The notes under the pieces: model-generated
Database searches by the model: none
The model's input: the letters and a program-made list of their open reading frames with translations, nothing else
What the model was told of the DNA's origin: nothing
NCBI GenBank assembly: GCA_027118455.1
Contig: JAJAYZ010000015.1
Location: 3,596-67,595, forward strand
Length of the DNA stretch: 64,000 nt
Origin: Actinomycetes bacterium
GTDB lineage: Bacteria; Actinomycetota; Actinomycetes; JAHEKZ01
Direction: 5' to 3'
Made by a program: the position numbers and the translations under genes
Shown: positions 1 to 18,498 of the stretch, in pieces
How positions within the stretch are numbered: position 1 is the first letter of the stretch
Layout: each line of letters begins with the position of its first letter

Positions 1-163
1 AGCCGCTGGTTGTCCAGCTGGCCGAGGACTCGGTCTCGCGTCACCGCATCACGGTGTCACAGACGAGCGGACACCCCATCGATATAGGGGTGTGTCCTGG
101 TCCAGAAGGTGGGGATCTGGCCAAGTTCCGGCACGGAAGGCTGCTGTGTGATTCCATTTCATC

Positions 164-1165
164 ATGTCTGATGACGTCTTCTCCCTGGGTGATGTCCTGG
201 CTGCCACCGATCGCCGGCTCGAGGCCGGCCTGACAGCGGCGGCACGAGTCACCCCCACCGGTTTTCATCCGCTCGACACCTACCTAGCTGGTGGGCTCCG
301 AGCTGGCGAACTGACACTGCTCGGTGGTCCGCAGGGGCTCGGCAAGACCACGATGGCGCTGCAGATGCTGCGGAATGTCGTGGTCAGCGGAGGAACCGGG
401 CTCTACTTTTCCTTCGAACATGACCCGGCCACGGTCCTCGAGCGCTTTGTGGCGATCGAGGCGTCATCCAGGTATGGGATCGATGCCGTCCCTCTTCGCC
501 GCATTCGCGAAGCGATGGAGAGCCTCGATGGTCACAGTGGGGGGCTGGCTGATCGTTTGGCAAACACTCCCGGCGGGGGCGAGGCTGTCGACGCCGTCGA
601 GAAGTACGCATCGCGCCTGCACATCCAGCGGGCCAGCGGTGGGGCCACTGATCTGACGACGATCAAAGCAACGGTCAACCAGGTGATCGCTGAGACCGGG
701 TCCGCACCTGTTGTCGTCGTTGACTACTTGCAGAAGGTGCCCGTCCTCGATCGACAGCTCTCCGAGGAAGACAGGATCACCACGGTGGCCCAGGGGCTCA
801 AAGACCTCGCGCTGGAACGCGACGTTGCAGTTTTCGCGGTGGTTGCATCCGACAAGGAGGGTATCGTCAGTGGGCGCCGCATGCGGGTGCACCACCTGCG
901 CGGTGCAGCGGCGTTGGCGTACGAGGCTGATGTCGTTCTGGTGATCAACGACAAGTACGACGTGGTGGCGCGACACCACTTGGTCTTCGATGTCGGAAAC
1001 GCCGAACGCTTCCGTGACTTCATTGTCGTAACCATCGAGAAGAACCGCACGGGGATCGACCGCATCGACTTAGAGTTCCGCAAGCGTTTCGAACAAGGGC
1101 GATTCGAGACCGAGGGTGCACCCGTCGCTGAGCAGTTGGTAGACGAGCGCGTCTTCGTCGAGTAG
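164..1165 (+). CDS. DnaB-like C-terminal (RecA/KaiC-superfamily) ATPase lacking the DnaB N-terminal domain
   Basis: Walker A GGPQGLGKTT, FSFE catalytic Glu, Walker B VVVDYLQ, EADVVLVI, IEKNRTG; begins at TPTGFHPLDTYLAGGL after about 30 aa. Confidence 0.8.
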   Translation: MSDDVFSLGDVLAATDRRLEAGLTAAARVTPTGFHPLDTYLAGGLRAGELTLLGGPQGLGKTTMALQMLRNVVVSGGTGLYFSFEHDPATVLERFVAIEASSRYGIDAVPLRRIREAMESLDGHSGGLADRLANTPGGGEAVDAVEKYASRLHIQRASGGATDLTTIKATVNQVIAETGSAPVVVVDYLQKVPVLDRQLSEEDRITTVAQGLKDLALERDVAVFAVVASDKEGIVSGRRMRVHHLRGAAALAYEADVVLVINDKYDVVARHHLVFDVGNAERFRDFIVVTIEKNRTGIDRIDLEFRKRFEQGRFETEGAPVAEQLVDERVFVE

Positions 1166-1167
1166 CG

Positions 1168-2451
1168 CTAGGCGGTAGGCGTCTGGTCCTGGTTCAAGTG
1201 CTCGGCGAGTAGTCGCGCGAGCGTGCGGAGATCCACGGCTTGCTCGATTAGCGGCCCTGCCTCGTCAGCCAAGTCGACGAGGGATGACAGAGAGCGTTCG
1301 GTGAAAGGCTCCGAGCCGTCACGCGAGAGAATGAGTACCGCTCGCACAATTGGAACGGGGACGGCCATCAGGTGGTTTCGACTTGCGAGTGGGGTCCCGC
1401 GCAAGTCAAGGCGCGCGACGTCACTGTCTTGAATTAGCACTCCCTTTCCTGCCGTCGCAACGTTGTCGACGATCCAGGCCTCGGGCAAGAGCTGCAGCCG
1501 GTGTTCTAGGGGGCGGAGGCCGACACCTGCCGCCACTCGCCACAGTGCGCCATCGGGGACCAGCAGGGCGCCGGCATCAGCGAGACCACGGACGACCGCG
1601 TCCTCAACGATGACTTTGGCGATCTCCTCAAGGGTGTAGTAGCTCTCGGCTTCCTCCAGGAGCCAATGCATCGGGTCACCGGCGCTGAACTCACTGATCG
1701 GTTCCGGCTCGGGTTCGGGGGCGGCTGGCGCGACTGATGGGAGCGGTTCAGAGGGGTCGAGCCGGATGCTCGAGACCGGGTGCTCGTCGGAGGACTTGAG
1801 GGCGCTGTGCTTGTGCAGCTGCGCGCTCCTGGGCTTCCTCGGCGCGTGGGCGGGAACCGGGACGGCCGCGGGTTCGCTCACAAGGAAGGGTTCTGGCGCC
1901 TGCTCTGGCTCGGGTTCCGGGTTGGGCTCGGTGACCAACTCGGGCTCCGGCTCGAGGAGCCGTTCCCGTTCAGGTGACGGAACCGGTGGGGTGGATTCCT
2001 CCTCACGAAGCAGCTCGGGCGCTGGGGCAAGGTCGAGCTCGGGAACGTCTTCCAACAGTGGGTCACTGGGAGCAGCGGTCTTGACCGCGGGAGGGGTGCG
2101 GGGGTGCCGGAGAGCAGCGGCGAGGGCGATCTTCAGACGCTCGGGGTCCAGGGGCAGCGGAAGCAGCTCGACACCGGGGAGGCTGGTGACGCCGGACTCG
2201 CTCCATGCCGGGTCAGACGCCGCCACCAGCAAGACAGGCACCCACCGGCCTTGGGCCCTCAGGTCACCGACCACGCGTTGAGCGTCCTTCGGCGAGCCGA
2301 GATCGAGAACGAGAACGTCGACGCCGACGTCCTCGCCGCCTGCCAACCAGTCATCGAGGCCAGATGGCCGGATCTCCGCAACGCTGTGGTCGCTGGCCGA
2401 GAAGGCCATCGACATGTCCGGGTTGCGCGAAACGAGGGCTACGCGCGCCAT
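1168..2451 (-). CDS. Pseudo-receiver + Pro/Glu-rich linker + GAF-like domain protein, last gene of the Tad operon
   Basis: N-terminal REC-like pattern (RVALVS..VDVLVLDL..VPVLLV..LPLPL), EPEPE linker, C-terminal GAF-like pattern (ADAGALLV..HLMAVPV..VLILSR..EPFT); starts 3 nt after the tadC stop. Confidence 0.65.
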   Translation of the reverse strand: MARVALVSRNPDMSMAFSASDHSVAEIRPSGLDDWLAGGEDVGVDVLVLDLGSPKDAQRVVGDLRAQGRWVPVLLVAASDPAWSESGVTSLPGVELLPLPLDPERLKIALAAALRHPRTPPAVKTAAPSDPLLEDVPELDLAPAPELLREEESTPPVPSPERERLLEPEPELVTEPNPEPEPEQAPEPFLVSEPAAVPVPAHAPRKPRSAQLHKHSALKSSDEHPVSSIRLDPSEPLPSVAPAAPEPEPEPISEFSAGDPMHWLLEEAESYYTLEEIAKVIVEDAVVRGLADAGALLVPDGALWRVAAGVGLRPLEHRLQLLPEAWIVDNVATAGKGVLIQDSDVARLDLRGTPLASRNHLMAVPVPIVRAVLILSRDGSEPFTERSLSSLVDLADEAGPLIEQAVDLRTLARLLAEHLNQDQTPTA

Positions 2452-2454
2452 GGC

Positions 2455-3393
2455 CTACTGCCCGACGACTATCGCGTCGTAGATGTTGATAGCGGCCGGC
2501 CCCAACACCACGATGAACAGACACGGCAGGATGCAGAAGATCAACGGGAAGAGGATCTTGACCGGCACCTTCTGAGCCTTCTCCTCCGCGCGTTGTGAGC
2601 GCTTGATGCGCATCTCTCTGGCCTGAATTCGCAGAACGTTGGCGATTGGGATACCAAAAGCGTCTGCCTGGATCATGGCGGTCACGAATCCTTGCAGCTC
2701 TTCGACGTCAGTGCGCTCGCCGAGTGCCCGCATGGCTTCGCTGCGTCCCATTCCGATCTGCATCTCTTGCAGGACACGGAAGAACTCCTCAGCGAGGGGT
2801 CCGTGCGTGTTTCGCGCCACCTGAGAAACGGCGGCGTCGAAGGCAAGCCCGGCCTCGACGCTGATCGTCAGGAGGTCGAGGGCATCGGGAAGATCCTTGA
2901 GAATCTGATCGCTCCGGTTGTAGGCGGCCTGGTGCAGGGCCATGTTCGGCGCATAGAAGCCAGCCAGCGTGAAGCCGATCGCGCAAGCAAGCGTTGGTAG
3001 AAACCCGCCGATGAGCGCCCCAAAGAGCAGTCCAACGATCAGTCCGGCGAAGAGTCCAAGAACCTTGAAGGCGATGACCCGGTCGACGTTCCAGTTGGGC
3101 GGGTTACCAGCCAGATCGAGTTTCCGCTTGATCCGATCGGTCTGGTCTCCCGCGGTGAACCGATGGCCGAGCCCGGTAAGACTTCCCATGGCTGGGGCTA
3201 AGACGCGGTCGCCAAAGGGCCTGTCCAGTTCGGCCCTCATCTGATCGGGCGCGGTGTCTATCGCCCGAACGGCTGCCAGTGAGCGATTGACGGCCTGGCG
3301 TTCTGACGTGATGGTGCCGATGGTGGTCAGCAAAATGACGATCGCCACGAAGACGGCGATAAGCCCAAGCGCAAGCACGAGTTCGGGCGCCAT
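2455..3393 (-). CDS. tadC: Tad pilus platform protein TadC (T2SS F family)
   Basis: LPDALDLLTISVEAGL, RAEEKAQKVPVKILFPL motifs; transmembrane segments; operon context. Confidence 0.9.
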   Translation of the reverse strand: MAPELVLALGLIAVFVAIVILLTTIGTITSERQAVNRSLAAVRAIDTAPDQMRAELDRPFGDRVLAPAMGSLTGLGHRFTAGDQTDRIKRKLDLAGNPPNWNVDRVIAFKVLGLFAGLIVGLLFGALIGGFLPTLACAIGFTLAGFYAPNMALHQAAYNRSDQILKDLPDALDLLTISVEAGLAFDAAVSQVARNTHGPLAEEFFRVLQEMQIGMGRSEAMRALGERTDVEELQGFVTAMIQADAFGIPIANVLRIQAREMRIKRSQRAEEKAQKVPVKILFPLIFCILPCLFIVVLGPAAINIYDAIVVGQ

Positions 3394-3394
3394 T

Positions 3395-5347
3395 TCAGAC
3401 CTCCACCTTCACGACTTTGCGGAGCCACAATCCACCGACGGTCAGCAGGACCACGCCCGTGCCCAGCAACAGCCAGCCGAACGCGGTGGTGATCAGAGGC
3501 TGAAGGTACTCAGGACGAACGAGCACGAGGTAGAGCGCGAAGACCACGGGCAACAGTCCGAGGATCCACGCTGACAACCGACCTTCGGCTGACAAGACCT
3601 GTACTTGGCGACGAAGCCGCTCACGTTCACGAAGCGTTGCCGACACTGTCGTCAGCACCTCGGCGAGGTTTCCGCCGACCTCGCGCTGGATGCGGATGGC
3701 CATGACCACCCATTCAAAGTCGACGCTCTGCATTCGCTGGGCGATCCCGTCGAGGGCATCTTCAAGGTCGACGCCCAACCGTGTCTCGACGAGTGCACGG
3801 TTGAACTCCGTCGAAATCGGGGGCTTACCCTCGCGGACCACAGTGTCGATCGCCTGTGGCATCGAGTATCCCGCCGAGAGGCTGCCAGCCATGAGCTGCA
3901 GGGTATCGGGAAGGGCGGCCATGAAGTCCTTGCGCCGCTTGCCAGCCTTGTACGACAGATACGTCCAAGGAAGCACAAGGCCGAGGACCAGGGCTACCAG
4001 CGTCATCAGTATTCGGCCGTTGGTCAGCAGGAAGGCAACGAGGCCAGCCCCTAGCATGATTCCGACGTGAATCAGAAGCCACTCGGCTGGCTTGAGCGGG
4101 ACCGCTGCCGACTCGAGTTTGGCACCCAACGTCGACTCAAAGTCTCGGTGGGCGACCACGCGGCCGGCGAACTCGACCGCACTTCTGGCTACCTTGGTGT
4201 CGCCGAGGACCGTCGTCTCCTGCTCCTTGACGGGCGCCTTTCCACCGAGCGTGTAGATCGACAGGCGGCGCCGGACGCCGCCCCCTCGGCCGCGCTCAGG
4301 ATCGGTGCCGGCTGAGATGGCCACGTAGACCAGGATCAGCAGGGCCACGAAGAGCGCACCGATGGCAACCCAGATCAGGTTGTCAGCGACATTTGCAATC
4401 GGTCCGGGCTCAGGTGCAAGGGAAGGGGTCGGAACGTTGTTGGATCCGTCCCCGCCGGTATCACCGAGTACCACCTGTGCTTCGTCGGTGAGGGGAACGC
4501 CGTCGACCGGGATGGTCGCCGACAGCGTGCCGGAGGTCTGGGTGTAGCCATCTGGCAGGTCTGCAGTGATGAGGAACCGGTTGGACAGGGTGTTTGCTGC
4601 TTGGTCGAACGCCTCGATCAACTGATCGGTGTCCGCTGCTTGGTAGACCGTTCCCTCGGTTGCCCCGGCAATATCGGTGAGTGCTGCGACCTGTTCGGTG
4701 CTGTCGCCGAATGAGACCACATCAAACCGTGCATCAGACTGCTTGGCGGCCTTGGTTGCTTCTGCCAGCGTGGCCGAGCTGCCTCGGTCGGCGCCGTCGG
4801 AGAGCAACAGGGCAGAGCCGACGTCAGCCGACGACAACTCGTCGGCGGCCAGGGCGACAGCGTCGTACAGCACCGTCTGCGGCGCGGTCGTCAATCCGTC
4901 GATGGTATCCAGCAGGTTGACTCGGTTGGTGGTCGGAGCGACCTGAAGCTCGGCAACGTTGGCGAAGGTCACGAGGCCGATCTCCACCTCGCTGGGGACG
5001 GCGCTGACGAACTGCCGTGCAGCGTCCTTGGCGGCTGTGAGCTTGTCTCCAGCCATGGAATCGCTGGTGTCCATGACTAGCAGCGCCGTTTGGGTGACGT
5101 CGCTGGCATCCGACAGTGACTGAACATCGGGGTTCAGGGCCTGCCCCTCGAGCGACGCACTGGCGTTGCCCGTGTCAATCGAGGCATCGGCGGGAATGCC
5201 GTCCAAGGTGACAACGAAGCTCACCTGCCCGTCGGCGACATCGACCTCGCCGATCGTCGAACTCTCGGCGGCGAAGGCCGACCCAGGAGTGGCAAGCAGG
5301 AGCAGCGCGGCTGCTGCGGCGCCGGTGATGATCCGACGCACGCTCAT
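3395..5347 (-). CDS. tadB: VWA domain fused to TadB (T2SS F family)
   Basis: Signal peptide (AFA|AE), MIDAS DTSDS, LLLSDG, then LPDTLQLMAGSLSAG and QREVGGNLAEVL TadB motifs. Confidence 0.9.
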   Translation of the reverse strand: MSVRRIITGAAAAALLLLATPGSAFAAESSTIGEVDVADGQVSFVVTLDGIPADASIDTGNASASLEGQALNPDVQSLSDASDVTQTALLVMDTSDSMAGDKLTAAKDAARQFVSAVPSEVEIGLVTFANVAELQVAPTTNRVNLLDTIDGLTTAPQTVLYDAVALAADELSSADVGSALLLSDGADRGSSATLAEATKAAKQSDARFDVVSFGDSTEQVAALTDIAGATEGTVYQAADTDQLIEAFDQAANTLSNRFLITADLPDGYTQTSGTLSATIPVDGVPLTDEAQVVLGDTGGDGSNNVPTPSLAPEPGPIANVADNLIWVAIGALFVALLILVYVAISAGTDPERGRGGGVRRRLSIYTLGGKAPVKEQETTVLGDTKVARSAVEFAGRVVAHRDFESTLGAKLESAAVPLKPAEWLLIHVGIMLGAGLVAFLLTNGRILMTLVALVLGLVLPWTYLSYKAGKRRKDFMAALPDTLQLMAGSLSAGYSMPQAIDTVVREGKPPISTEFNRALVETRLGVDLEDALDGIAQRMQSVDFEWVVMAIRIQREVGGNLAEVLTTVSATLRERERLRRQVQVLSAEGRLSAWILGLLPVVFALYLVLVRPEYLQPLITTAFGWLLLGTGVVLLTVGGLWLRKVVKVEV

Positions 5348-6735
5348 CGCCCCGCGAACTTCTCGAACGCGAAGATCGACGCGTCTACCTGCACGCCACC
5401 TGCCGCGAGCTTGTCGAGGAACTTGGGGCGCAGCCCGGTGGACTTCAGGGCGCCGAGTGAGCGCCCGTTGTCGTCAAAGCCGGACCCGTGATCGAAGAGG
5501 AAGAGATCCTGGAGGGTGATGACGTCACCCTCCATACCGACGACTTCGGTGACATGTGTGATGTGACGCGTGCCGTCCTTGAACCGAGTTTGCTGCACGA
5601 CGACGTCGATGGCGCTGGAGACCTGTTCACGAATCGCCCGCACTGGCAGGTCGATCCCCGCCATGAGCACCATGGTCTCGACACGGGCGAGCACATCGCG
5701 GGGAGTGTTGGCGTGGACCGTGCAGATCGAGCCGTCGTGCCCGGTGTTCATGGCCTGGAGCATGTCGAGAGCTGCAGCGTCACGGACCTCACCAACGACG
5801 ATTCGGTCGGGGCGCATACGCAGGGCATTGCGGACGAGGTCGCGGACCTTGACCTCACCCCGACCTTCGATGTTGGGTGGGCGAGCCTCGAGGCGAAGCA
5901 CGTGGTCCTGGTGCAGTTGAAGCTCTGCGGCATCTTCAATGGTCACGATGCGCTCATCTTCTGGGATGAAGGAGGAGAGCACGTTGAGTGTGGTGGTCTT
6001 CCCTGCGCCGGTTCCACCGGAGACCAAGATATTGAGCTTGCCGCGGACGCAGGCGTCCAAGAAGTCGGCAACTGTCCGCGTGACGGTTCCGAAGCCGATG
6101 AGATCCTCGATGCGGTACGGGTCAGCCGCGAACTTACGGATGGTGAGGAGTGAGCCGTCGAGAGCGAGTGGCGGGACGACGGCGTTGACGCGGCTGCCGT
6201 CGGGCAGGCGCGCATCAACCATGGGGCTTGACTCGTCAACGCGTCGGCCGACTCTGGCGACGATCTTGTCGATCGTGCGGCGCAGGTGGTTCTCGTCGGT
6301 GAACTCGCCCTCAGTCTTGTAGATGCGGCCGGCACGCTCGATCCAGATGTCAGAGCTGCCGTTGACCATAACCTCGGTGATGTCCGGGTCACGCAGGTAC
6401 GGCTCGAGCGGCCCGTAGCCGAGGATGTCATCGGCAATCTCTTGCGAGAGGCGGGCTCGGTCGGGGGTGGTCAGCGGGGTGTCCTCCTGGCTGAGCACCT
6501 CCTGCAGCGTTTGTCGCACCTTCTGCTCGAGCTCACTTTGGGTCTGGCGTGAGTCGTAGAGTTTTGGGCCGAGGTTGTCCAGAAGTGCCTGATGAACCTG
6601 GCGCTTGAGATCGGCGAACGGGTCGCTCGTCTTGCGCTTGGCTGCCGGTTTTCCGGTGAGAGTGTCGTCGGCCTCGACGTGTTCGGTCGGCGCCTTCTGT
6701 CGGCGCGCTTCAGCGAGGCGATCTGCCAGACTCAT
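5344..6735 (-). CDS. cpaF: Tad pilus assembly ATPase CpaF/TadA
   Basis: [39 protein letters not shown]. Confidence 0.95.
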
Positions 6736-7943
6736 GAGGTCTTGGCCTTCCTGCGTAGGAGACCGCGGCGATCACTGCGGAGCTCGGGCGGGATGGATGA
6801 GTCGGTGTGGTGGCCGGTCAGGACGAACTTCTCGGCGAACTGCCGGATCGCCACGCTGACCGGGTGCTTGGGGTTGTCGTAGATGATCGGCACACCACGG
6901 TTGATGGCTGCCGGAACATCTCTCGAACTGGGTATCTGGATCGAGATCGGCACCCGAAGGGTCTTCTCAACCTCGTTGAGGGCGAGCCCCACTTTGGAGT
7001 CTGAGCGGTTGAGGACCACTGCCCACTTCTCCCGCGGGAAGTTGATCTCTTCGAGTGTTTCCAGCGTCAGTTTGAGGTTTTTCAGAGCCGGGATGTCCAA
7101 CGTGGCAATCAACGCGATCAGGTCGCTCTGGTCGAGTGCCTCGAGTACCTGTTCGTCAAAGGCCGGGGGAGTGTCGACCACGACGTAGTCGAACTCCTGC
7201 CGCAGGATGTTCAAGATCTGACGCACCAAGTCTGCGGTGATCCCGCGGTTCGAGCCTGGGTCGAGTGGGGCGACCAAGGTGAACAGCCCGGGCATGTTGC
7301 TGTGCGGGGTGAGGAGAGCCTGCACCGAACCGGAGTCGATTCCGTCGCCTAGAGCGACGGCGTCGGCGATGGTGTGCGCGGGGAAGAGCTGAAGTGCGAT
7401 GGCGACGTCCCCGAACGAGAGATCGAGGTCGACGAGGCAGACTCGGTTGCGGCCACCCTCGGTGAGTGCGACAGCAAGGTTGGTCGACAGCGTTGTCTTG
7501 CCGCAGCCACCTTTGGCCGAGAAGACCGTGACCAAGATGCCGTGGTCGAGGTCGTCCTCGGGAAGCGAAGCCCCTGGCACCGTCTCGCGCATGGACTGCG
7601 CCAGTGCTTTGACCCGTGCGACCGCCGCATTGATACCGGGGAGGTCGCGCTCCTCGACGACCTCGCGAACGCCAGCGCGCAGGGCGTCGGCGAGCACCGA
7701 GGTGTCCACCCTGCGGCGCACCAGGACCACACCCAGGCTCGAGCGAGTGAGCCGCATGGCGGACGCGAGATCCAGTGCGCTTTCGAGGTCGACTGAACCT
7801 CCGACCACGACGGCGTCCTCACCGAGGTGGGTGTCAAGGTGTCTCCGCAGCGCGTCAACGGTGGGGATGACCACCGTTTCCGCACCAAGGGCCGAGCGGA
7901 GGGTTTCCGCGGCGCTTGGGTCGTAGTCGAGGATCGCGGTCAT
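6732..7943 (-). CDS. cpaE: CpaE/TadZ pilus localisation protein (receiver-like + MinD/ParA ATPase)
   Basis: ALRAGVREVV receiver tail, FSAKGGCGKTT, VDLDLSFGD, VVVDTPP. Confidence 0.9.
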   Translation of the reverse strand: MTAILDYDPSAAETLRSALGAETVVIPTVDALRRHLDTHLGEDAVVVGGSVDLESALDLASAMRLTRSSLGVVLVRRRVDTSVLADALRAGVREVVEERDLPGINAAVARVKALAQSMRETVPGASLPEDDLDHGILVTVFSAKGGCGKTTLSTNLAVALTEGGRNRVCLVDLDLSFGDVAIALQLFPAHTIADAVALGDGIDSGSVQALLTPHSNMPGLFTLVAPLDPGSNRGITADLVRQILNILRQEFDYVVVDTPPAFDEQVLEALDQSDLIALIATLDIPALKNLKLTLETLEEINFPREKWAVVLNRSDSKVGLALNEVEKTLRVPISIQIPSSRDVPAAINRGVPIIYDNPKHPVSVAIRQFAEKFVLTGHHTDSSIPPELRSDRRGLLRRKAKTS

Positions 7944-8659
7944 TAGCGCCTCAGGTCCTGCGGTGTCGTAATGACGCCGGTGCGCGTGGTGGTGCCAGGT
8001 CCGAGCAGGCCGAAGTAGAGGGCGCCATTCGCCTGACCGTTGATGATCCGCTGAGCCTGATTCTGGTCGGTCTCAAGAGTCAGGATCGTCTGCGGAATCT
8101 CCTCGGTAGTCGACCCGCCCGTCTGGTCGGTCGTCACCTGCGTGCTCAGAGTGGTGGCACCGGTGGCGAGCACCTCGACCTTCGGAATGATGACCATGGT
8201 GTCGGTGTTATCGGTCCAGAAGATGGTGACGTCCGAGCCCGGTGCCACGAAGCCCGCGACTCGTTCGGGGTCGCCGAGCTGGACCGACATCGCCAACTTG
8301 TCCTTGGGAACGCTAAGGCCCGACGCGGCGGCTCCCGGTGGCCCGAACATCTGCGCCAAGATCTGTTGCCCCGGGAAGATCGGGGCCAACGCCACCTGGT
8401 CGGAGATGATCGTGATGTCGGACAGCACGCCTTGTGGAGCGGCCGAGGCAGGCACCGTCTGGATCTCGAAGGCACCGTCGTTCGACGCGTCAGTTGCGTT
8501 GGTGCCCGCGGCGACCTGTTGCGTCGCGACCAGCACGTCGACTGGCGCAGCGTCAGCCTGCGCTCGGTCGTCGGCGTTCGTGACGTACACGAAGATGAGC
8601 ACCGTGCCGAGCGCGGCAACCACCAGAGCGGCAATGAGCAAAAGTGTTCTACGTCCCAT
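7943..8659 (-). CDS. cpaB: Flp pilus assembly protein CpaB/RcpC
   Basis: N-terminal TM, SAF-like VLVATQQVAAGT, VAGFVAPGSDV; start moved to ATG at 8659 (MGRRTLL). Confidence 0.9.
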   Translation of the reverse strand: MGRRTLLLIAALVVAALGTVLIFVYVTNADDRAQADAAPVDVLVATQQVAAGTNATDASNDGAFEIQTVPASAAPQGVLSDITIISDQVALAPIFPGQQILAQMFGPPGAAASGLSVPKDKLAMSVQLGDPERVAGFVAPGSDVTIFWTDNTDTMVIIPKVEVLATGATTLSTQVTTDQTGGSTTEEIPQTILTLETDQNQAQRIINGQANGALYFGLLGPGTTTRTGVITTPQDLRR

Positions 8660-8721
8660 ACGACCTCTATCGGAGTGTGGAGCCCACGGTTGAGGGAACA
8701 AGGCGGACAATTTCCAACACA

Positions 8722-8757
8722 GCGACAACGAAGGCGTCGTGACGCCTTAGTTGTCGC
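8722..8757. promoter_or_regulatory. 36-bp near-perfect inverted repeat upstream of the Tad operon
   Basis: gcgacaac-g-aaggcgtc-gt-gacgcctt-a-gttgtcgc; 16 of 17 positions pair. Confidence 0.55.
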
Positions 8758-8890: not shown

Positions 8891-10419
8891 CTAGCCACCT
8901 GCGACCGTCAGCACGACCGAGGCGCGGACGTGGGGATGCGCCCACGCTTGACCAGTGCGGTACCAGTGCAGCGCGCTCAGCAGGAGCACCGGAACGGCCC
9001 CCAGGAGTGGCATCCACCACAGACCGGAGTAGGCGAGCATGAGGAAGTAGAGGCTGGTGAAGGCGGTCACGAGGGCGAAACGCATCGACTGGGCGGCCAT
9101 GACTCCCGGTGTTGCCGGGGTGTCCCGTGGGCCCTGAAGGTCGGCGCGATGCGGGTTGCGCAGTGATGAGCGCATGCCGAGGGCGACGACGATGGCCGCG
9201 CAACTGAGCGCAGACATCATCGCCCCCGTCACCTCCGATGCCGCGTTCGGCGGGTGAGCCCGAAGTGACCCGCCGATGAGCGCGGAGAGCACCGCGCCCA
9301 TGGCCACCTCGAGAAACACCAGGGACTTCGCCAGGAAGGCGGGAGACGCCCATCCAGGCAGAGTCGAGAGCCAGACCGAGCCCGTTGAGTCCAGGGTGAA
9401 GGCGTTGATCCCGAAGAGCAGCCCGGCCCCAGCAGCGATCAGCCCCGGAACCAAGATCAGCGACTGCCAGCTCATGCCGGCAAGGGCCGAAACGACACCG
9501 GGAACGATGACCAGCACCAGCACTCCGCGCCGGAGTGGGGTCGACCGCCACACGCTCGCATGATCGACAGCAAGCAGTGAGTACAGGACGCTGTGCGACC
9601 AGCGACGCCGAGGGAGCGCCCGTGAACTGGTTCGGTCGGCGTGGTCGCCAGAGCGCCGCAGCGCCCAGCCGGTGACGGCATCTCCCATGAGCAGAAGGAC
9701 GGCTCCGCCTGCTACCAGGACCCCGACAACTATCAGCCAAGGGCCGTAGTTGCCTTGGTAGCCGTCGAATGCGGCACTGAGGACGTACCTCGTCGGCGAG
9801 TTGTCGAGCAGCGGGATCACGTTGTCGGTCCAGAGGATCAGCAGCCCCGCTGTGACAGCGAGGGCGCCGGCTGCATTGGTGGCGAGGCGTCCGCGATGCG
9901 TTTGTCGGATCCCCATCACCAGCCAGCCGATGGTGTGGCCGGCGATGGTGACGGCCCCGATGAAGGCGCTGACGGTCAGCAACGAGCGCGAGGTGCCCCC
10001 CCAGGCCAGTTCTCCGGTGGCAAAGCCGGTGATCACGAAGAGCGCGACCACGTTGATCATCCACGCCAGGTTGACGGGAGCAGCACCAGCGTTCCGCGGA
10101 ACACCGTCGAGGGCTTCACTGAGTAGGCCACCAGCTGGTCGGGCGGGTAGAGCTCGTAGCCGCCACCAGACACCAGCGGAGCGAGCACTGCGAGCACCAG
10201 GAATCCGACATAGAACGTTGGGGTGGCCAGGGACAGATTGAAGGTCTGGTCGTCAGGAAGGGGTTGCATACCGAACAAGCCTGCGACGACCAGGGCGGCT
10301 GGCAACAGCGTAATCGCGGCAATAGCCGCTCGCAGCGGCCGCGACCGGATCATCCTCCAGCGAAGGCGGAGCAGGGCGAGCAGCTGTCGGCTGGACCCGA
10401 CATCGCCAGGTGGCGTCAT
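8891..10419 (-). pseudogene. Putative ABC permease split into ORFs 10057..10419 and 8891..10060 (frameshift or coupled split gene)
   Basis: Both halves are polytopic membrane sequences; inserting one base near 10080 gives continuous GTLVLAPVNLAWMINVV; directly downstream of an ABC ATPase. Confidence 0.6.
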
Positions 10420-11126
10420 GAGGTCAGCAATGCGCGGTAGCGCTCGGCGCCTGCTGTACCGGCGAGTTCTGAGGCTGGAGCTGCTGCGACAACTTGCCCG
10501 CGGCGCAAGACGACGGCTTGTTCGCAGGCCTCGACGGCCAGGTTGAGCAGGTGTGTCGAGACCAGCACGGCTGATCCAGTTGCCCGAAGTTCGGCGATGA
10601 CATCCATCGTTGCCTCGACGCCAAGAGGGTCAACTCCGTCGAAGGGTTCGTCGAGCAGCAGCACCTCTGGTTCATGGAACGCCGCGAGTACGACCGACAT
10701 TCGTCGACCCATCCCGTGCGAGAAGCCCGCAGTGATGCGGTCGGCCACCCCGAGCAGGTCAAAGCGGTCGAGAAGGTCTTCGGCGCGCTTCTCCCAGTCG
10801 GCACCCATGTTGCGCATGGTCGCGGCCAGCTGGAGATGCTCCCAGGGTGTCGCGCGCGGAATGAGTCCGCCGACGTCCGGGCAGTACCCGACCCTCGTAC
10901 GTGCTTGGTCGGGATGGCGGACGGCGTCGATCCCGGCCACCCGCACCGTTCCTGTGGTGGGGGGGAGGACCCCTGCGAGGACCTTGAGCGTCGTTGACTT
11001 GCCCGCTCCGTTGCGTCCCACCAGTGCCAGCGTTGCCCGGGCCGGCACGCTGAGGTCGAAGCCGTCCACCGCGACGACGGGCCCAAACGACACTGTGAGT
11101 CCTCGGGCTTCCACGACTGCGCTCAT
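10416..11126 (-). CDS. ABC transporter ATP-binding protein
   Basis: GRNGAGKST, FSHGM signature, LLLDEPF, STH; start ATG 11126 after GAAGGGGG. Confidence 0.92.
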   Translation of the reverse strand: MSAVVEARGLTVSFGPVVAVDGFDLSVPARATLALVGRNGAGKSTTLKVLAGVLPPTTGTVRVAGIDAVRHPDQARTRVGYCPDVGGLIPRATPWEHLQLAATMRNMGADWEKRAEDLLDRFDLLGVADRITAGFSHGMGRRMSVVLAAFHEPEVLLLDEPFDGVDPLGVEATMDVIAELRATGSAVLVSTHLLNLAVEACEQAVVLRRGQVVAAAPASELAGTAGAERYRALLTS

Positions 11127-11238
11127 CGTCCCCCCTTCGGCCACTCGGACCCCTAGGTTGATGGGCCTGTCGGGGCGTTCGCAACTGGAGAGTGCTTTTG
11201 CCGTCAAGGCCCGACCCGACGGTGCCGAGGAAACCTTC

Positions 11239-11712
11239 GTGAGTACCACCTTGTCATGCGGTCAGTGCGGCGCTCAGTTGCGCGCGGAGCAGGACTGGTG
11301 CTCGCTCTGTTACGCGGGCGTTGAACCGTCGTTCGATCCCTTGACCGCGCCTTTGGAGCAGGTGGTTGGGCGCTCTGAAGCACCAGAGCCCCCCGTTGCT
11401 GACCCCGTCATCGAGTCGGCCCCAGCCACACCGGTAGGCGATCTGCGGTTGGACCGGGCCAGCAACCATCTGGCTGTGTCATCTCCCGAAGAGCCCGTCG
11501 ACACCACTGACGACAAGTCGGCTGTCGAGGTCAGCGACCTTGATGTCATGTTCTCGATGCTCGCGGCAGAGCATCGGCGCAGCGACGTGACGGCCCAGAT
11601 CGTTGACCGGCTGGAGGACAGGTCGACTCGCATTGCGGTGATGGTCGGCGGGATGGTGCTCGTCGGCGCCGTCAGCTTCTTGGTTCTGACCGTGCTCGGC
11701 GCCATCTTCTAG
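11239..11712 (+). CDS. Hypothetical zinc-ribbon protein with C-terminal TM helix
   Basis: CGQC..WCSLC; hydrophobic C-terminus; GTG start after GAGG. Confidence 0.65.
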   Translation: MSTTLSCGQCGAQLRAEQDWCSLCYAGVEPSFDPLTAPLEQVVGRSEAPEPPVADPVIESAPATPVGDLRLDRASNHLAVSSPEEPVDTTDDKSAVEVSDLDVMFSMLAAEHRRSDVTAQIVDRLEDRSTRIAVMVGGMVLVGAVSFLVLTVLGAIF

Positions 11713-11761
11713 GGCCGATACGCTCGGTGTGTTCACCGCTGACGCACGGCCTGGAGCACCC

Positions 11762-12199
11762 ATGAGCGAGCAGACGTCCTCGACCATCGTGATCGAGGCG
11801 ACTCCCTCTGTGGTGATGGGCGAGATAGCCGCTCTCGAGTCGTACCCAGAGTGGGCCGGATCGGTCCGCTCGGTTGAGGTGCTTTCTCGGGATGACGAGG
11901 GCCGACCCTCTCGAGCGACGTTCGTGCTCGACGCCGGCGTTGTCAAGGACACCTACACGCTGCAGTACACCTGGCGCGGCGACGAGTCGGTCAGCTGGAC
12001 CTTGGTCGAGGCTCAGATGCTGACCGCCATGGACGGCAGCTATCGGTTGACCGACCAGGGCGAGGCGGGGACGGTCGTGGAGTACGTGCTGACGCTCGAC
12101 CTGAAGATGCCGATGATCGGCCTGTTGCGCCGCAAGGCGGAGAAAGTGGTCACCGATACCGCGCTGAGGGAGCTCAAACGCCGCGTCGAAGGCGCCTGA
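11762..12199 (+). CDS. SRPBCC/polyketide cyclase family protein
   Basis: YPEWA..DAGVVKDTYTLQY..GSYRL..RKAEKVVTDTALRELKRRVE pattern. Confidence 0.85.
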   Translation: MSEQTSSTIVIEATPSVVMGEIAALESYPEWAGSVRSVEVLSRDDEGRPSRATFVLDAGVVKDTYTLQYTWRGDESVSWTLVEAQMLTAMDGSYRLTDQGEAGTVVEYVLTLDLKMPMIGLLRRKAEKVVTDTALRELKRRVEGA

Positions 12200-12258
12200 C
12201 GATCGCTGCAAAACACCTGTGGGGCCACGACTAGGCTGCGCCGACAAGGAGGTGCTCC

Positions 12259-13455
12259 GTGCGAGTAGTGCTCTTCACCGGCAAGGGCGGTGTGGGAAAG
12301 ACCACCCTCGCGGCAGCCACCGCGGCCACGGTCGCTGCTAACGGCCGCAAGACCCTCGTGCTCTCGACCGACCCCGCCCATTCACTGGCTGACGCTTTCT
12401 CCTGTGGGGTCGACGCAGAACCGACCGAGGTGGCGTCCGGGCTCTACGTCGGTCACGTTGACACGCAGCGCCGACTCCAGGACTCCTGGGGCGATCTGCA
12501 GGGTTACCTGACGTCGTTGCTCGGCTCCGCTGGCTTCGACAGCCTGCGCGCTGAAGAACTGACCGTTCTGCCGGGCGCTGAAGAGCTGCTGGCCCTGATC
12601 GAGGTACGTGACCACGTACGCAGCGGTCGGTGGGACGCGGTGATTGTCGACTGCGCCCCCACGGCGGAGACGCTGCGGCTGTTGGCGCTGCCCGAGGCTC
12701 TCGACTGGTACCTGAGCAAAGCACTACCGGCTGAGCGTCGCGTCGTGCGTGCGCTCCGACCTCTGCTCGGTCCTGCGGTGGGTCTTCCCGCGCCGAACGC
12801 CGAGGTGTGGGCCGCTGCCGAGCGCCTGCAGGGTCAGTTGCTCGACGTGCAGCAGGTGCTGCGCGCACCTGAGACCACCGTGCGTTTGGTTCTGACTCCT
12901 GAGTCCGTCGTGGTCGCCGAGGCGCGTCGGACTCTGACGCAGCTGGCGCTGTATGGCTATCGCGTCGATGGGGTGATCGCGAATCGAGTCTTCGATGGCG
13001 GTGACGACCCATGGCGTACCGGCTGGGCCCAGACGCAACGCCGTCAGCTCCGGGAGGTCGTCGACTCGTTCGAACCCTTGCCGATGTACACCGCCGGATA
13101 CCTCCCGGCTGAACCAGTCGGAGCCGAGGCCCTGGCCAGTCTCGGGGCGATCGTCTACGGGAGTGCCGACCCCCTTGCGACAGTTGCGGCCGCTGACTTC
13201 CTGCAGGTGCGGCAAGTGGGCAGCGGGTTCGTCATGACGCTCGCGCTTCCGTTGGTCGACAAGGACTCGCTTGACCTCACCCGAGTGGGCGACGACCTTG
13301 TCGTCACGGTGTCAGGGCGCCGACGAGTGTTGGCGCTGCCTAGCGCGCTGCGGCGTTGCCACGTACGCGGAGCCCACGTCGAGGATGGGCGTCTGGAGAT
13401 CAGGTTCCAACCAGACCCTGACCAGTTTCCTCGAGGCTCGGAGGTACACCCATGA
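12259..13455 (+). CDS. ArsA/Get3-like ATPase with C-terminal alpha-crystallin-like domain
   Basis: GKGGVGKTT, STDPAHSL, VDCAPTAETLRLL; C-terminal beta-rich tail. Confidence 0.9.
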   Translation: MRVVLFTGKGGVGKTTLAAATAATVAANGRKTLVLSTDPAHSLADAFSCGVDAEPTEVASGLYVGHVDTQRRLQDSWGDLQGYLTSLLGSAGFDSLRAEELTVLPGAEELLALIEVRDHVRSGRWDAVIVDCAPTAETLRLLALPEALDWYLSKALPAERRVVRALRPLLGPAVGLPAPNAEVWAAAERLQGQLLDVQQVLRAPETTVRLVLTPESVVVAEARRTLTQLALYGYRVDGVIANRVFDGGDDPWRTGWAQTQRRQLREVVDSFEPLPMYTAGYLPAEPVGAEALASLGAIVYGSADPLATVAAADFLQVRQVGSGFVMTLALPLVDKDSLDLTRVGDDLVVTVSGRRRVLALPSALRRCHVRGAHVEDGRLEIRFQPDPDQFPRGSEVHP

Positions 13456-14662: not shown

Positions 14663-14794
14663 TAGAGCGTCACTCTCCGTAGTATCCATGCTCTGAGCAC
14701 GGGGGACTTGGCTTCGCGAATCTCAAGAAGACGCCAAATCCTGCCGATGGCGCCTCTGGGACGGGCGCTGTTGGGCTCCCGCGCGGAGGGAATC

Positions 14795-15313
14795 ATGAAG
14801 CGACTGAGAAGGACGATTCAGGGACGACGAGACCACGGGGCTACCGCCGTGGAGTTCGCCCTTGTTGCACCTGTCCTGCTGCTCCTGGTCTTCGGCATCA
14901 TCCAGTACGGACTTTGGTTCTCCGACTCACTTTCCACCCGTCAGGGTGTTCGCGAGGCGGCCCGTCAGGGTGTCGTTGCCAACTTCGGTGACACCACAAG
15001 TTGTGGCTTGACCGGTGCAACCGGTGATGACAACTCAAAGAAACTCATGTGCACTGCCCAGGACCGGATTAGCGGAATCACCGGGGACCCAGCGGTCAAG
15101 GTGATCGCTCCAGAGGGCTGGTTCCGTGGCAAGCCGCTCATCGTCTGCTCGCAGTTGAAGGTGGGGATCGGGACCGGGATCGTCCCGCTGCCCAACGACC
15201 GCATTATTCGCAGCGAAGTCCAGATGTCGATCGAGAACGCAACCCCGGCTCCGCTCTTCACCGGTGGTGAGGAGACCGCGCCGGCTGGAGCGGACTGGAC
15301 GTGGTGCCGATGA
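14795..15313 (+). CDS. tadE: TadE-like minor pilin
   Basis: Prepilin site RRDHG|ATAVEFALV, hydrophobic helix, REAARQG; ATG 14795 after GGAGGG. Confidence 0.88.
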   Translation: MKRLRRTIQGRRDHGATAVEFALVAPVLLLLVFGIIQYGLWFSDSLSTRQGVREAARQGVVANFGDTTSCGLTGATGDDNSKKLMCTAQDRISGITGDPAVKVIAPEGWFRGKPLIVCSQLKVGIGTGIVPLPNDRIIRSEVQMSIENATPAPLFTGGEETAPAGADWTWCR

Positions 15314-16695
15314 TGTCGCGCATCCGAGAGGATGGTGGGGCTGTTGCGGTCTTGACAGCCGTCCTATCCGTGATGCTCTTTGGGATAGCCGCGCTGGTCG
15401 TCGACCTCGGCATCGCCCGCGACAATCGTCGTCAGGCGCAGAACACCGCGGACTCAGCTTCGCTGGCCGCCGCGAACGCCCTCTATGCGACAACGGCCCC
15501 GAACCTCAACAAGCCCGGAGATTTTCAGGCGGCCGTAGATGCAGCCAAGTCCTACGCAGCCAAGAACTACGGAACAACCGACGCGGAGTGGGCAGGCTGC
15601 GTCAACAACGAGCCGTTGCCCTTCCAGTTCCCTGGGACTGGGAGCAGTTGCATTTCCTTCGACTCCTTCCTATATCCCAAGCAGGTACTCGTCGTCGTGC
15701 CGTTGCGCAAGCAGCCGTCGATGTTCGGCGGTGTCTTCGGTTACACCGGCGTCAGCATCGGGGCTTTGGCTCAGGCGAGGCTCGATCCTGGAGGCAAGAA
15801 CATCTGCACCTTCTGTGTGCTCGGTAGCGGAACTCAGTCGATCCAAAACGGCAACCTGACGGTCTCCGGTGGGAACATGTGGTTCAACGGCAACGTCAAC
15901 ATCAAGAACAACGGCTACGCCGGGTCCCTTGCCGGGTATGTCACCGGCGATGACGGTACCCAAACACTCGACGGCGGGAACGCGTATGTGTCAGGGACGG
16001 TGAAAGGAAGCATCTCGAGTTTCCAAGGAGGGAAGGGTCAGACCGGGCAACCTAAGATCGTCGACCCGCTGGCCTCCTACCAGCTCCCGTTTGCGACACA
16101 ACAGACCCTCAGCCCGAAGGTGAACCCCTGTGCCGACGGTCCTGGGATCTACGCTGGTTACAAGAGCACCAGCAGCGCCCCGTGTGTGATGCAGCCAGGG
16201 CTTTACGTCTTTACCGGTGACTTTGAGCTGGCCGGAAACGCGGGCCAGCTTCAGGCCAACGGTGTGACGTTCTACTTCACCTGTGGATCGGGTACGACAC
16301 CCGCGGCTTGCGGCCCTGGCACCGTGACCAGCCCCGGGGAAACGGGCGGTGGGATCAAGATCTCTGGAAATGGCGGCTATGTGATCACCGCGCCCTCGAA
16401 GGCCACTGTTCCGACGCAGCCGGAGGAGCTGTACGGCTGGGCCATCGTCTATGACCGATACAACAACGCCGACATGCGGCTGACCGGAAACGGTACGTCA
16501 ACGGTCTCCGGCACCATCTACGGCGTCAACGCGACCTTGGACTTGCGCGGCAACGGTGGAAGCGATGTGCCGTTTGCGTCCTTGATTGTTGTGGGCGGGC
16601 TCAACTTCGACGGCAACAACGCCACCATGAACGTTGCCTTCGACTCGTCGAAGAACGTCAAACCTGGTGAAGGGGCACGCGGCCTGGTGCGGTAG
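15310..16695 (+). CDS. tadG: TadG-like pilus tip protein
   Basis: DGG|AVAV, VVDLG..AQNTADSASLAAA; Gly/Asn-rich C-terminal domain. Confidence 0.85.
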   Translation: MMSRIREDGGAVAVLTAVLSVMLFGIAALVVDLGIARDNRRQAQNTADSASLAAANALYATTAPNLNKPGDFQAAVDAAKSYAAKNYGTTDAEWAGCVNNEPLPFQFPGTGSSCISFDSFLYPKQVLVVVPLRKQPSMFGGVFGYTGVSIGALAQARLDPGGKNICTFCVLGSGTQSIQNGNLTVSGGNMWFNGNVNIKNNGYAGSLAGYVTGDDGTQTLDGGNAYVSGTVKGSISSFQGGKGQTGQPKIVDPLASYQLPFATQQTLSPKVNPCADGPGIYAGYKSTSSAPCVMQPGLYVFTGDFELAGNAGQLQANGVTFYFTCGSGTTPAACGPGTVTSPGETGGGIKISGNGGYVITAPSKATVPTQPEELYGWAIVYDRYNNADMRLTGNGTSTVSGTIYGVNATLDLRGNGGSDVPFASLIVVGGLNFDGNNATMNVAFDSSKNVKPGEGARGLVR

Positions 16696-16698
16696 CGG

Positions 16699-17883
16699 CT
16701 AGCGGTAGAGGCGCACCGCGCGCGTACCAAAATCGCACTTCGGATCGCCAATACGACAGCCGGCGCGCGGGTCAACCACACCAGAAGTAGCGTACGAGAC
16801 AGGGACGACCCAGAGGCCGCCCTCGTTGTTCTTGTACCCCGTCCAGGTGGCGAGATCGAGGCTGCCAGGCGGCGGTAGCCAACGCCCTGAGCATTCGGGC
16901 GGGAGAGTACCTTGGACAACGCTTCCGCCACGGTTGGCTGAACACACCACCACGGCCACGACTCCGGTGACGTTCAGGCGGTCAATGCCCGGGCCATCGG
17001 TATACCTATCAGCGACAGGTAGCAGGATCGTCTTGTTCACGAGGTCGTCGAAGGATGCACGCCACGTGGAGGAGTTCGCCAGGCCTGTGTTGCCGCCGAG
17101 CGCCGGGTTCGGAAAGTACACCGGGCCGCCATAACCATCCGCTGTCCAGCTGCTCTGGCAACCCGCGTTACCGCCGCTGCTGGGGCTGCCTGGCGTGCAT
17201 GTCTCGTTAGGGTTGTACGCAGGCGCGCCCGCGTCGTTGTACGTACCGAACGAGCCTTGGTCGAGAAAGTTGGTGAATCCCCATTGCCCTGGCGCGCCAG
17301 CGCCGCAGATCGCGGAGTCATTGGACACGTTGACAAGAAAAGCATTGGCGACGGGCGGTGTCTCGCCTGGCTTGTAGTTGTTCAACACCGTGGCCTGGCA
17401 CGCTGCAATGGGCCGCAGACCGGAGACGCCTGCCGGTACGTAGAGCTGCGCAGTCGCCGATGTGTTGGGGACATAGCCGTTGGCGCCGAATATGCCGCCA
17501 AAGAAGGTTTCCACCGAACGTTGGTTCTTGACCGTCACTTCGACGATCCCTTCGGGGGTGCAAGCCACTTCCACCGACGTGACGACCGAGTCGCCCCTCA
17601 AGTCGTTCTCGCTGTTCGCGGACCTCGCAGCGCTGTCTGCCGTCGCTTGGAGGGAAGCGGGATTACACGAACCTCCGACGGGGATCTTGGCGTTGACCGC
17701 GCGAGCTGCTGCGAGGGCTGAGGCATCCGCAGCGACAGACAGCTGACGCTTGTTCGCGAATACATTGCCGAAGTCGACAGCGAAAGCGGCCATTCCGAAA
17801 AGCAGGACGGCGCAGATCGCCACAACTATGGCGATCGCGCCTTGATCACGCTGGTGCCCCGTGGTCAGCTGCTGAACTCGCAT
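16699..17883 (-). CDS. tadG: Second TadG-like pilus tip protein
   Basis: DQG|AIAI, AVDFG..LSVAADASALAAA. Confidence 0.85.
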   Translation of the reverse strand: MRVQQLTTGHQRDQGAIAIVVAICAVLLFGMAAFAVDFGNVFANKRQLSVAADASALAAARAVNAKIPVGGSCNPASLQATADSAARSANSENDLRGDSVVTSVEVACTPEGIVEVTVKNQRSVETFFGGIFGANGYVPNTSATAQLYVPAGVSGLRPIAACQATVLNNYKPGETPPVANAFLVNVSNDSAICGAGAPGQWGFTNFLDQGSFGTYNDAGAPAYNPNETCTPGSPSSGGNAGCQSSWTADGYGGPVYFPNPALGGNTGLANSSTWRASFDDLVNKTILLPVADRYTDGPGIDRLNVTGVVAVVVCSANRGGSVVQGTLPPECSGRWLPPPGSLDLATWTGYKNNEGGLWVVPVSYATSGVVDPRAGCRIGDPKCDFGTRAVRLYR

Positions 17884-18380
17884 CGATACACCGCCGTTGC
17901 TGTCAGAGTGAAGGTGGGTGATGTCATGAAAGGAAGCCCGGTAAGCAGCTTCGTTTCGTACTCAGATGTAGCTTTGATGGAGGCTTCAACTCCGGTCCCC
18001 TCCGCGCACACGCGTTTGTTGATGTTCGCGCCCGTGGCAGTCTTGGTGGCTGCGGTGAAACAGTTGAAGGGGGGGCCCGTGGACGGGACCCGCTGCACTT
18101 GCACCTTTACGTCACCGGTCGACATTCCAATCGTTGGCCCACTTGCCGACTGGATGCTGGACAGCACCTGGCCGCAGGTCTGCTGCGTTATGTTTCCGGC
18201 TACGACAGCTGAGCGAACCCCCTGGCGGACGCCGTTGTTCACAGCGAGTTGCTGGGCAAAGATGATACCGAAACTGATGATGCCGAAGACGAGCAGGAGC
18301 AGGATCGGGAGGACCAACGCCAACTCCACTGCTGCGGCGCCGTCCTCGGAGCGCCGCTTCGGTCGGAAGCGAGCGATCAT
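17865..18380 (-). CDS. tadE: Second TadE-like minor pilin
   Basis: SEDG|AAAVELALVLP, GVRQGVR; ATG 18380 after AGAGGGG. Confidence 0.88.
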   Translation of the reverse strand: MIARFRPKRRSEDGAAAVELALVLPILLLLVFGIISFGIIFAQQLAVNNGVRQGVRSAVVAGNITQQTCGQVLSSIQSASGPTIGMSTGDVKVQVQRVPSTGPPFNCFTAATKTATGANINKRVCAEGTGVEASIKATSEYETKLLTGLPFMTSPTFTLTATAVYRCEFSS

Positions 18381-18498
18381 CGGGCCCCCTCTGGGGCGAC
18401 ATTCGCCCATACGGTCTATCAAGGTGATCAGCGCAAGTGTCCTCTAGCGTTGAGCCATCGGTCAGGATACCCCCCACGTTCACCCGTTTGGAGCAGAG

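Follow-up and report, generated by a model that had tools for sequence, protein, structure and literature searches.

A DnaB-like ATPase gene within an actinobacterial Tad cluster

The window analyzed here, a stretch of 64,000 nucleotides (nt) that spans positions 3596-67595 of contig C15 in the 2.83-Mb assembly of an Actinomycetes bacterium, opens within a gene cluster for a Tad/Flp pilus. Embedded in this cluster is a gene for a 333-residue ATPase that resembles the C-terminal domain of DnaB. Our analysis identifies the protein as a DnaB-derived superfamily-4 (SF4) ATPase, which has lost the DnaB N-terminal domain and kept the linker helix, Walker A and B motifs, catalytic glutamate and trans-acting KNR arginine finger. 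Although not obligatory there, its gene is found in Tad/Flp clusters throughout the actinobacterial phylum, and is very probably a genuine accessory of them. Throughout, C, G, L and P numbers designate the contigs, genomes, loci and proteins of our datasets.

The cluster runs in the order cpaB-cpaE-cpaF-tadB-tadC-(receiver-GAF)-(antisense ATPase)-kinase-regulator-flp, with the ATPase gene as the sole gene on the opposite strand in the middle of a co-linear array. It lies tail-to-tail with a gene for a 427-residue receiver-GAF protein, their stop codons (1165 and 1168) being separated by 2 nt, and the receiver-GAF gene in turn starts (2451) 3 nt past the stop of tadC (2455). These distances agree with a preliminary description of the locus, which had also placed the ATPase at the end of the Tad operon. 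The latter placement does not hold, as the kinase, regulator and flp genes continue on the tad strand to the left of the window. The 333-residue reading frame is not a chance one, because homologs of 40-95% identity occur phylum-wide. A promoter scan around the ATPase gene found no sigma-70-type site, and a terminator scan of the same region returned three weak hairpin-like candidates, all of them within coding sequence. Aligned kinase/ATPase intergenic regions from 10 loci contained no convincing shared operator.

Domain architecture and predicted fold of the ATPase

Pfam assigns residues 31-310 of the protein to DnaB_C (PF03796; 79.6 bits, cut-off 27) and returns no match to the DnaB N-terminal domain (PF00772); its first residue corresponds to about residue 158-175 of DnaB. 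Against TIGR00665, the DnaB equivalog model, it scores 70.1 bits, below the cut-off of 385.25. Scores are likewise low for the NCBIfam models of RadA (TIGR00416; 34.2 bits, cut-off 403), KaiC (17-31 bits, cut-offs 408-546) and FlaH (NF004723; 19.6 bits, cut-off 194), and the Pfam KaiC match (PF06745) is partial, covering residues 31-97 and profile positions 2-69 of 231. A true, full-length DnaB, whose presence the preliminary description had left to be confirmed, is encoded elsewhere in the genome (contig C17; 454 residues, 551.7 bits against TIGR00665), and a RadA-like gene lies separately on contig C6.

We aligned the ATPase with family members and the genome's own DnaB, and compiled a second alignment of 79 family members. 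Walker A (G58, G60, K61), E85, the Walker B residue D187 and the K293-N-R295-x-G297 motif are invariant or nearly so. The motifs H3 and H4 of DnaB are altered: SQLNR reads VASDK in the window protein (family consensus AADR/K), and LRESG reads LRGAA (family RG[AS][AS], consensus LRGSS). A basic loop preceding H4 is conserved across the 79 members (R239 97%, R241 85%, H243/H244, R246 75%, G247 91%). Moreover, the family possesses two insertions and a conserved 25-residue C-terminal extension (EFRKRFEQ...VDERVF) that are absent from DnaB. Pfam and the alignments thus agree with the initial characterization of the protein as a 333-residue DnaB-type ATPase with intact Walker A/B and KNR motifs, no DnaB N-terminal domain, and VASDK and LRGAA in place of the DnaB motifs.

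The AlphaFold 2 model of the ATPase is of high confidence, with a predicted local distance difference test score (pLDDT) of 94.9 and a predicted template modeling score (pTM) of 0.92. Its best Foldseek matches are all DnaB proteins (E about 1e-18), as are its closest VIA-align matches (Z 29-32; 4esv_D at Z 32.1, root-mean-square deviation 2.8 over 274 residues), followed at lower ranks by T4 gp41, T7 gp4 and Twinkle (Z 22.5-27), RadA (Z 22.7-24.2) and Rad51 paralogs (about 22). No KaiC or ArlH entry occurs among the 50 structural matches shown, a list from which the absence of a family does not by itself exclude it. A sequence search of solved structures gave only remote RecA, KaiC and DnaB matches. 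Residues 2-28 of the model align with the linker helix of DnaB, which holds the ring together. These data do not bear out the analogy to KaiC and FlaH drawn in the preliminary description: the fold is DnaB-like at Z about 32, and the FlaH score is about a tenth of its cut-off.

Overall, the proteins form a distinct, unnamed subfamily of DnaB-like proteins, for which the current annotation of the relatives, 'replicative DNA helicase', is misleading. Among relatives of 400-520 residues, P0208 and P0211 retain the DnaB N-terminal domain; others carry unassigned extensions that may reflect miscalled starts. No fused, longer forms (584-2000 residues) were found at E 1e-40, which is weak evidence.

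Distribution and linkage to tad genes

A word-indexed search detected 2353 related proteins at E 0.001, the top 120 of which are 55-95% identical to the query and about 333 residues long; an exhaustive search detected 189 clusters (50% identity) at E 1e-30. To catalog gene context, the best 80 of 359 confirmed genome loci were surveyed by tblastn with the proteins of the window. Within these 80, the Tad arrangement is found in L005-L007, L010-L014, L016, L017, L034, L038, L039, L042 and L043, and the short loci L008 and L009 are compatible with it.

A broader sample of the class comprised 401 evenly drawn genomes, for which the ATPase (E 1e-30) and CpaF served as queries; coordinates were compared by hand, among the listed matches only. 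Of the 401 genomes, 68 carry the ATPase, and these belong to 38 of 174 genera. In 44 of the 68 carriers, which represent 15 families, the gene shares a contig with orthologous cpaF at a distance of 2.9-7.5 kb, on the strand opposite to cpaF in 41 genomes and on the same strand in three (G206, G066, G095). Six carriers have cpaF elsewhere (G331, G081, G376, G398, G326, G218), and the Tad loci of three of them, G331, G081 and G376 (L093-L095), are without the ATPase gene. The remaining 18 fall outside this comparison through contig ends or the lack of a listed orthologous cpaF match. Three of the carriers are unpublished genomes, G372 and G035 from the group of 44 and G023 from the group of 18; without them the counts are 42, 6 and 17.

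The linkage extends beyond the class. Among 301 genomes of the phylum that were searched, 36 carry the gene, 33 of them outside the class, and 19 of these 33 loci were fetched, chosen for usable contig context and leaving out two unpublished genomes. In 15 of the 19, which add five families, tad genes occur no more than 10 kb from the ATPase gene, and at least six arrangements are represented. The gene and flp diverge in L106, L108, L109, L118 and L121; in L104, L107, L113, L114 and L119 the ATPase gene occupies the other strand upstream of cpaB, again divergently; and it follows tadC directly and co-directionally in L111, L112, L115 and L116, where alignment offsets put the gaps at an estimated 5-100 nt or so. 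In L105 it is found 4 kb after tadC. Of the four loci without tad matches, three (L110, L117 and L122) have the gene about 1 kb or less from where the contig stops; L120 extends 9 kb on each side and contains only a kinase-regulator pair.

The ATPase gene usually occupies the point where the assembly genes (cpaB-cpaE-cpaF-tadB-tadC) meet the kinase-regulator-flp genes. Often it diverges from the pilin-carrying operon, and sometimes it comes last, after tadC. The association of homologs with tad genes, on which the preliminary description had staked its proposal, is strong both within the class and in other classes of the phylum.

Occasionally, the DnaB-like gene is matched in two overlapping pieces (L010 10001-11000; G339:C31:27068-28067; G151:C1:606915-607903), which indicates a frameshift or assembly error, or possibly gene decay. 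The contig of L006, titled as a metagenome-assembled genome (MAG) of Myxococcota, has the locus at 94% protein identity to the window. This contig is probably actinobacterial and was mis-binned. A further homolog, of 45% identity, occurs in a record filed as phage (MT839844.1, 'UNVERIFIED: Bacteriophage sp.'; L103 637-1629). This 6.8-kb entry from a faecal sample has 73.6% guanine plus cytosine (GC) and no recognizable phage or tad genes. The entry is probably misfiled bacterial DNA, and we rejected it as a sign of phage origin.

Phylogeny of the ATPase and of CpaF

Rows with Tad context fall into at least four deep lineages of the ATPase tree, which was built from 57 rows by a quick search, with supports from the Shimodaira-Hasegawa-like approximate likelihood-ratio test (SH-aLRT) only. 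Genes in a ribosomal context and genes beside dxr each form essentially one derived clade, and the Chloroflexota sequences constitute another branch together with the two relatives that retain the DnaB N-terminal domain. A cpaF tree (32 rows, quick search) contains the same deep split as the ATPase tree, at SH-aLRT 99. As a control for inherited gene order, we used an ABC-transporter trio that adjoins cpaB (Table 1). The trio was not found in L098, L100 and L101, the three deep-branching loci that could be evaluated, and the ATPase is still kept in them.

Neighboring genes

The features of the locus are collected in Table 1. The fusion of a signal peptide and a VWA domain to TadB is retained in related Tad loci, both inside the class and outside it. 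In many related loci, whether or not they have the DnaB-like gene, the ABC trio adjoins cpaB, and it may itself be part of the cluster. Further Tad minor-pilin genes form a second block 6 kb past cpaB (14708-18422), arranged as two divergent pairs. The genome also encodes a separate TadA-like ATPase of the TIGR03819 family (G000:C56:27458-28462), distinct from the locus in the window, and a DEAH-box helicase of the TIGR03817 family (G000:C62:977-3211); any adjacency of the latter to the C56 ATPase is masked by contig ends.

Table 1. Genes and other features at the ATPase locus. Positions are those of the window unless contig C15 is named.
Feature	Position	Strand	Evidence or remark
DnaB C-terminal-domain-only SF4-type ATPase, 333 residues	164..1165	+	Open reading frame (ORF), Pfam, NCBIfam, alignment, model
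Divergent intergenic region, 119 nt, between kinase start and ATPase start; presumed shared promoter region	45..163	.	No consensus promoter found
HisKA_3/HATPase histidine kinase, weak GAF match, 547 residues; first 14 codons	1..44	-	Remainder left of window, contig C15 1996-3639
REC-GerE (LuxR-type) regulator	Contig C15 1380-2021, left of window	tad strand	Overlaps kinase gene
flp pilin gene	Contig C15 992-1195, left of window	tad strand	184 nt beyond regulator
Receiver-like / disordered Pro-rich linker / GAF protein, 427 residues	1168..2451	-	ORF, weak GAF_2 match, model
TadC, T2SSF platform protein	2455..3393	-	Pfam
Signal peptide + VWA + TadB fusion, 650 residues	3395..5347	-	Pfam
CpaF/TadA secretion ATPase, T2SSE	5344..6735	-	Pfam, NCBIfam; TIGR03819 about 344-345 bits, cut-off 373.15
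CpaE/TadZ, ParA/MinD-type ATPase with N-terminal extension	6732..7943	-	Pfam, NCBIfam
CpaB/RcpC	7943..8728	-	Pfam, NCBIfam
ABC-transporter trio: permease-like protein of 389 residues, 120-residue protein, ABC ATPase of 277 residues	8891-11249	-	
TadE	14708-15313	+	
TadG-like	15301-16695	+	
TadG-like	16699-17883	-	
TadE	17865-18422	-	

The 427-residue protein between tadC and the ATPase gene has no Pfam match to the receiver domain (PF00072) at E 0.01, and its GAF_2 match is weak (E 1.6e-4, below the cut-off). Its structural model places a receiver fold with five beta-alpha units at residues 1-115 and a GAF fold at residues 260-421, with a disordered region (about 120-255) between them. Foldseek relates the first part to the PhoP receiver (1mvo; target-normalized template modeling score 0.72 over 121 columns) and the last part to 3ci6 (E 1.3e-8) and many further GAF structures. 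The layout of pseudo-receiver, linker and GAF domain proposed from the first reading of the DNA is thus supported by model and structure search. In the phospho-acceptor pocket, read from the sequence against the common pattern of receivers, D50 is kept, SRN stands in place of the acidic pair, A77 replaces the threonine and L99 the lysine; the label 'pseudo-receiver' is apt because acidic pair, threonine and lysine are lost even though D50 is kept. The family is small, at 57 proteins, with a conserved receiver-like N-terminus, a conserved C-terminal domain and a variable Pro-rich linker. In the deep-branching loci L097 and L100, proteins of 400 residues (11864-13066, minus strand) and 288 residues (9033-9899, minus strand) follow tadC. 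Their N-termini are receiver-like and they have no Pfam match; they may be distant counterparts of the receiver-GAF protein.

Function of the ATPase

We tentatively favor nucleic-acid translocation tied to the pilus as the job of the ATPase. The protein would assemble into a ring, as the C-terminal domains of DnaB do, ATP would be hydrolyzed between its subunits, and a nucleic-acid strand would be threaded past the conserved basic loop of the H4 region (RRxRxHHLRG). Presumably co-expressed with the pilin, the ring would serve a pilus-linked DNA transaction, most plausibly the handling of DNA taken up via the Tad pilus, as in Micrococcus luteus. Replication would not be its task, which the true DnaB of the genome presumably covers. 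This reading draws on the DnaB fold, on the kept basic loop, on helicase genes as neighbors in three loci, and on the need for tad genes in M. luteus transformation. The helicase neighbors are UvrD-like and XPB/ERCC3-type genes that flank the ATPase gene in three MAG loci (L015 7854-12959, L018 7720-12624, and L021). In M. luteus, tad genes are reported to be required for transformation, and the tad-2 cluster is given as Mlut_18150-18190 (PMC4322843). A report on competence-reporter mutants names two hits (PMC8467076), which concern a different helicase family and serve as a lead only.

A bolder version, which we consider rather unlikely, is that a DnaB-derived hexameric motor is built into the actinobacterial Tad machine on its cytoplasmic side, either as the missing motor that pulls in or processes single-stranded DNA entering by the Tad pilus, and so stands in for ComFA, RadA or ComM, or as an ArlH-like second ring under CpaF. 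To our knowledge, the competence machinery of Actinomycetota is barely described. A complex prediction for CpaF residues 60-463 (27 rows) with the ATPase (79 rows), run with no controls, gave a score of 0.00 and a mark of 0.32 and is uninformative on binding.

Several observations weigh against a pilus-linked DNA motor. In L085, L086, L088-L090, L092 and L094, the genes cpaB-cpaE-cpaF-tadB-tadC-kinase-regulator-flp run on one strand without the ATPase. Since many orthologous Tad loci are of this kind, the ATPase gene is an insert at the tadC/kinase junction that is dispensable for the cluster, and it is not required for pilus assembly as such. Its presence on the cpaF tree requires at least six changes, three of them forced by well-supported branches. 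Moreover, the gene has contexts away from tad. In Nocardioides and Marmoricola (6 loci) it is flanked by rplJ/rplL on one side and rplA/rplK/nusG on the other, often in two tandem copies; such pairs, antisense and 45-52% identical to the window protein, were recorded in L026, L029, L030 and L041 (about 10001-12150; in L041, 1405-3420). In Pedococcus, Phycicoccus and their kin (10 loci) it lies beside dxr/rseP/ispG, and in 41 Chloroflexota loci, at about 41% identity, between ftsH/M20 peptidase and ppa. The ABC trio is syntenic within the main clade as well, and kin genomes and loci are not independent samples. Coupling to DNA may be changed or lost, because the H3 glutamine is replaced and the RESG of H4 is altered. 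The frequent adjacency to the kinase-regulator pair also fits a signaling role. Lastly, the tad clusters of M. luteus, as described in PMC4322843, list no such ATPase gene.

The principal alternative, possible although we lean towards doubting it, is a nucleotide-driven regulator or second ring that has no nucleic-acid substrate, and that acts as ArlH does on ArlI or, like KaiC, feeds the kinase-regulator pair. Such a ring would bind CpaF, TadZ or the kinase or regulator of the cluster, and so set assembly, retraction or pilin expression. The same Tad-linkage data are consistent with it, as are the altered H3 and H4 motifs and the gene order: kinase, regulator and ATPase lie on one strand in L100 and L101, and the regulator gene is the direct neighbor in L098, L111-L114 and L118. 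ArlH, a RecA-superfamily hexamer, sets a precedent for a ring that docks under the motor, there ArlI; such a partner is reportedly missing from other type IV filament systems (PMC12024892). However, the fold of the ATPase is DnaB-like, with KaiC and ArlH absent from the 50 structural matches shown and KaiC and FlaH profile matches as limited as reported above, and a strongly basic, conserved loop of the pore type is kept. The gene is also patchy among near-identical CpaF proteins, being present in L099 and absent from L085-L087 at CpaF identities of 79-81% to the window, which argues against an obligate CpaF partner. A narrower form of regulation, the two-protein module of ATPase and receiver-GAF protein suggested by the preliminary description, we regard as quite improbable. 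The tail-to-tail pairing seen in the window recurs in L005, L006, L009, L012, L013 and L016, and a receiver-like protein follows tadC in L097 and L100, where the resemblance is confined to N-terminal sequence. But these six are the only ones of the 80 loci surveyed by tblastn in which the partner gene was detected beside the ATPase; the partner is missing from L034, L038, L039, L096 and L099, where tadC abuts the ATPase gene, it is present without the ATPase in L087, and its family is small.

It is improbable that the protein is a repair or housekeeping helicase-like ATPase without a functional tie to the pilus, whose adjacency to tad is inherited gene order. The ribosomal, dxr, ftsH/ppa and UvrD/XPB contexts fit this explanation, as do the similarly conserved synteny of ABC gene and cpaB in the main clade and the fact that Tad loci function without the gene. 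Against it, the adjacency outlasts many rearrangements across 20 families of the phylum, down to 30-45% identity, four loci have the ATPase as the last gene closely after tadC, and the contexts away from tad each represent one derived clade. Descent from a phage, plasmid or defense gene that landed in the locus as a remnant is very improbable. DnaB_C proteins without the N-terminal domain are common in phages, PADLOC returned a weak mad8 match and no other (E 2e-4, 19 bits), and the presence of the gene is patchy. PHROGs gave generic DnaB-like helicase families (PHROG 19 at E 1e-35), and the ESM Atlas only the same family and phage DnaB_C clusters. Yet no phage genes were found around the ATPase gene, its GC content is like that of its surroundings, and its tree tracks that of cpaF. 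Identity to phage and plasmid members is 27-33% among the matches listed (7 phage at 28-29%, 10 plasmid at 32% or below), with the unverified record MT839844.1 as the one exception. There is thus no sign of a prophage origin, which the preliminary description had named as an outcome that would refute its proposal.

Relation to known systems

The ATPase shares with DnaB (SF4; PF00772 and PF03796; PDB 4ESV, 7T22) the RecA-type C-terminal domain, linker helix, Walker A and B motifs, catalytic glutamate and KxR finger. It differs in lacking the N-terminal domain, in its changed H3 and H4 motifs, in its two insertions and C-terminal extension, and in being encoded in a pilus cluster rather than a replication locus. 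RSF1010 RepA and phage ring helicases that consist of DnaB_C only (about 280-340 residues) are active without an N-terminal domain; in contrast to the ATPase they belong to replication modules, and identity to them is low. RadA/Sms (PDB 5LKM, 8RXC) is likewise a DnaB-like ring ATPase used outside replication, and shares a KNRxG-type motif, which is KNRFG in RadA and KNRTG here. Unlike RadA/Sms, the ATPase has no zinc finger or Lon-like domain, for which 333 residues leave no room.

Like ArlH/FlaH, the protein is an ATPase of the RecA superfamily whose gene accompanies those of a type IV filament machine, and CpaF is related to ArlI (NCBIfam FlaI model, E 1.5e-65). It departs from ArlH in belonging to the DnaB-like branch, with a canonical Walker B motif and arginine finger, and in being optional in Tad loci, whereas ArlH is required. 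The TIGR03817 DEAH-box helicase and the TIGR03819 TadA-like ATPase together make up what we take, from the TIGRFAMs names, to be an actinobacterial 'helicase/secretion neighborhood', in which a helicase-family gene is also conserved beside a Tad-like system. Its helicase, however, is a superfamily-2 DEAH-box protein, the CpaF of the window scores below the TIGR03819 cut-off, and the members of that neighborhood in this genome lie on C56 and C62.

In the literature searched, with subscription journals and supplements outside its coverage, we found no description of a DnaB-like or KaiC-like ATPase in Tad loci, and we know of no RecA- or DnaB-type ATPase that is part of any described Tad system. 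Tad/Flp pili drive adhesion and colonization. A ring ATPase that stays in Tad clusters over 20 families of Actinomycetota, despite changes in gene order, is a concrete and testable candidate, and may provide a hitherto unrecognized link between the pilus and DNA handling, or a means of controlling the motor.

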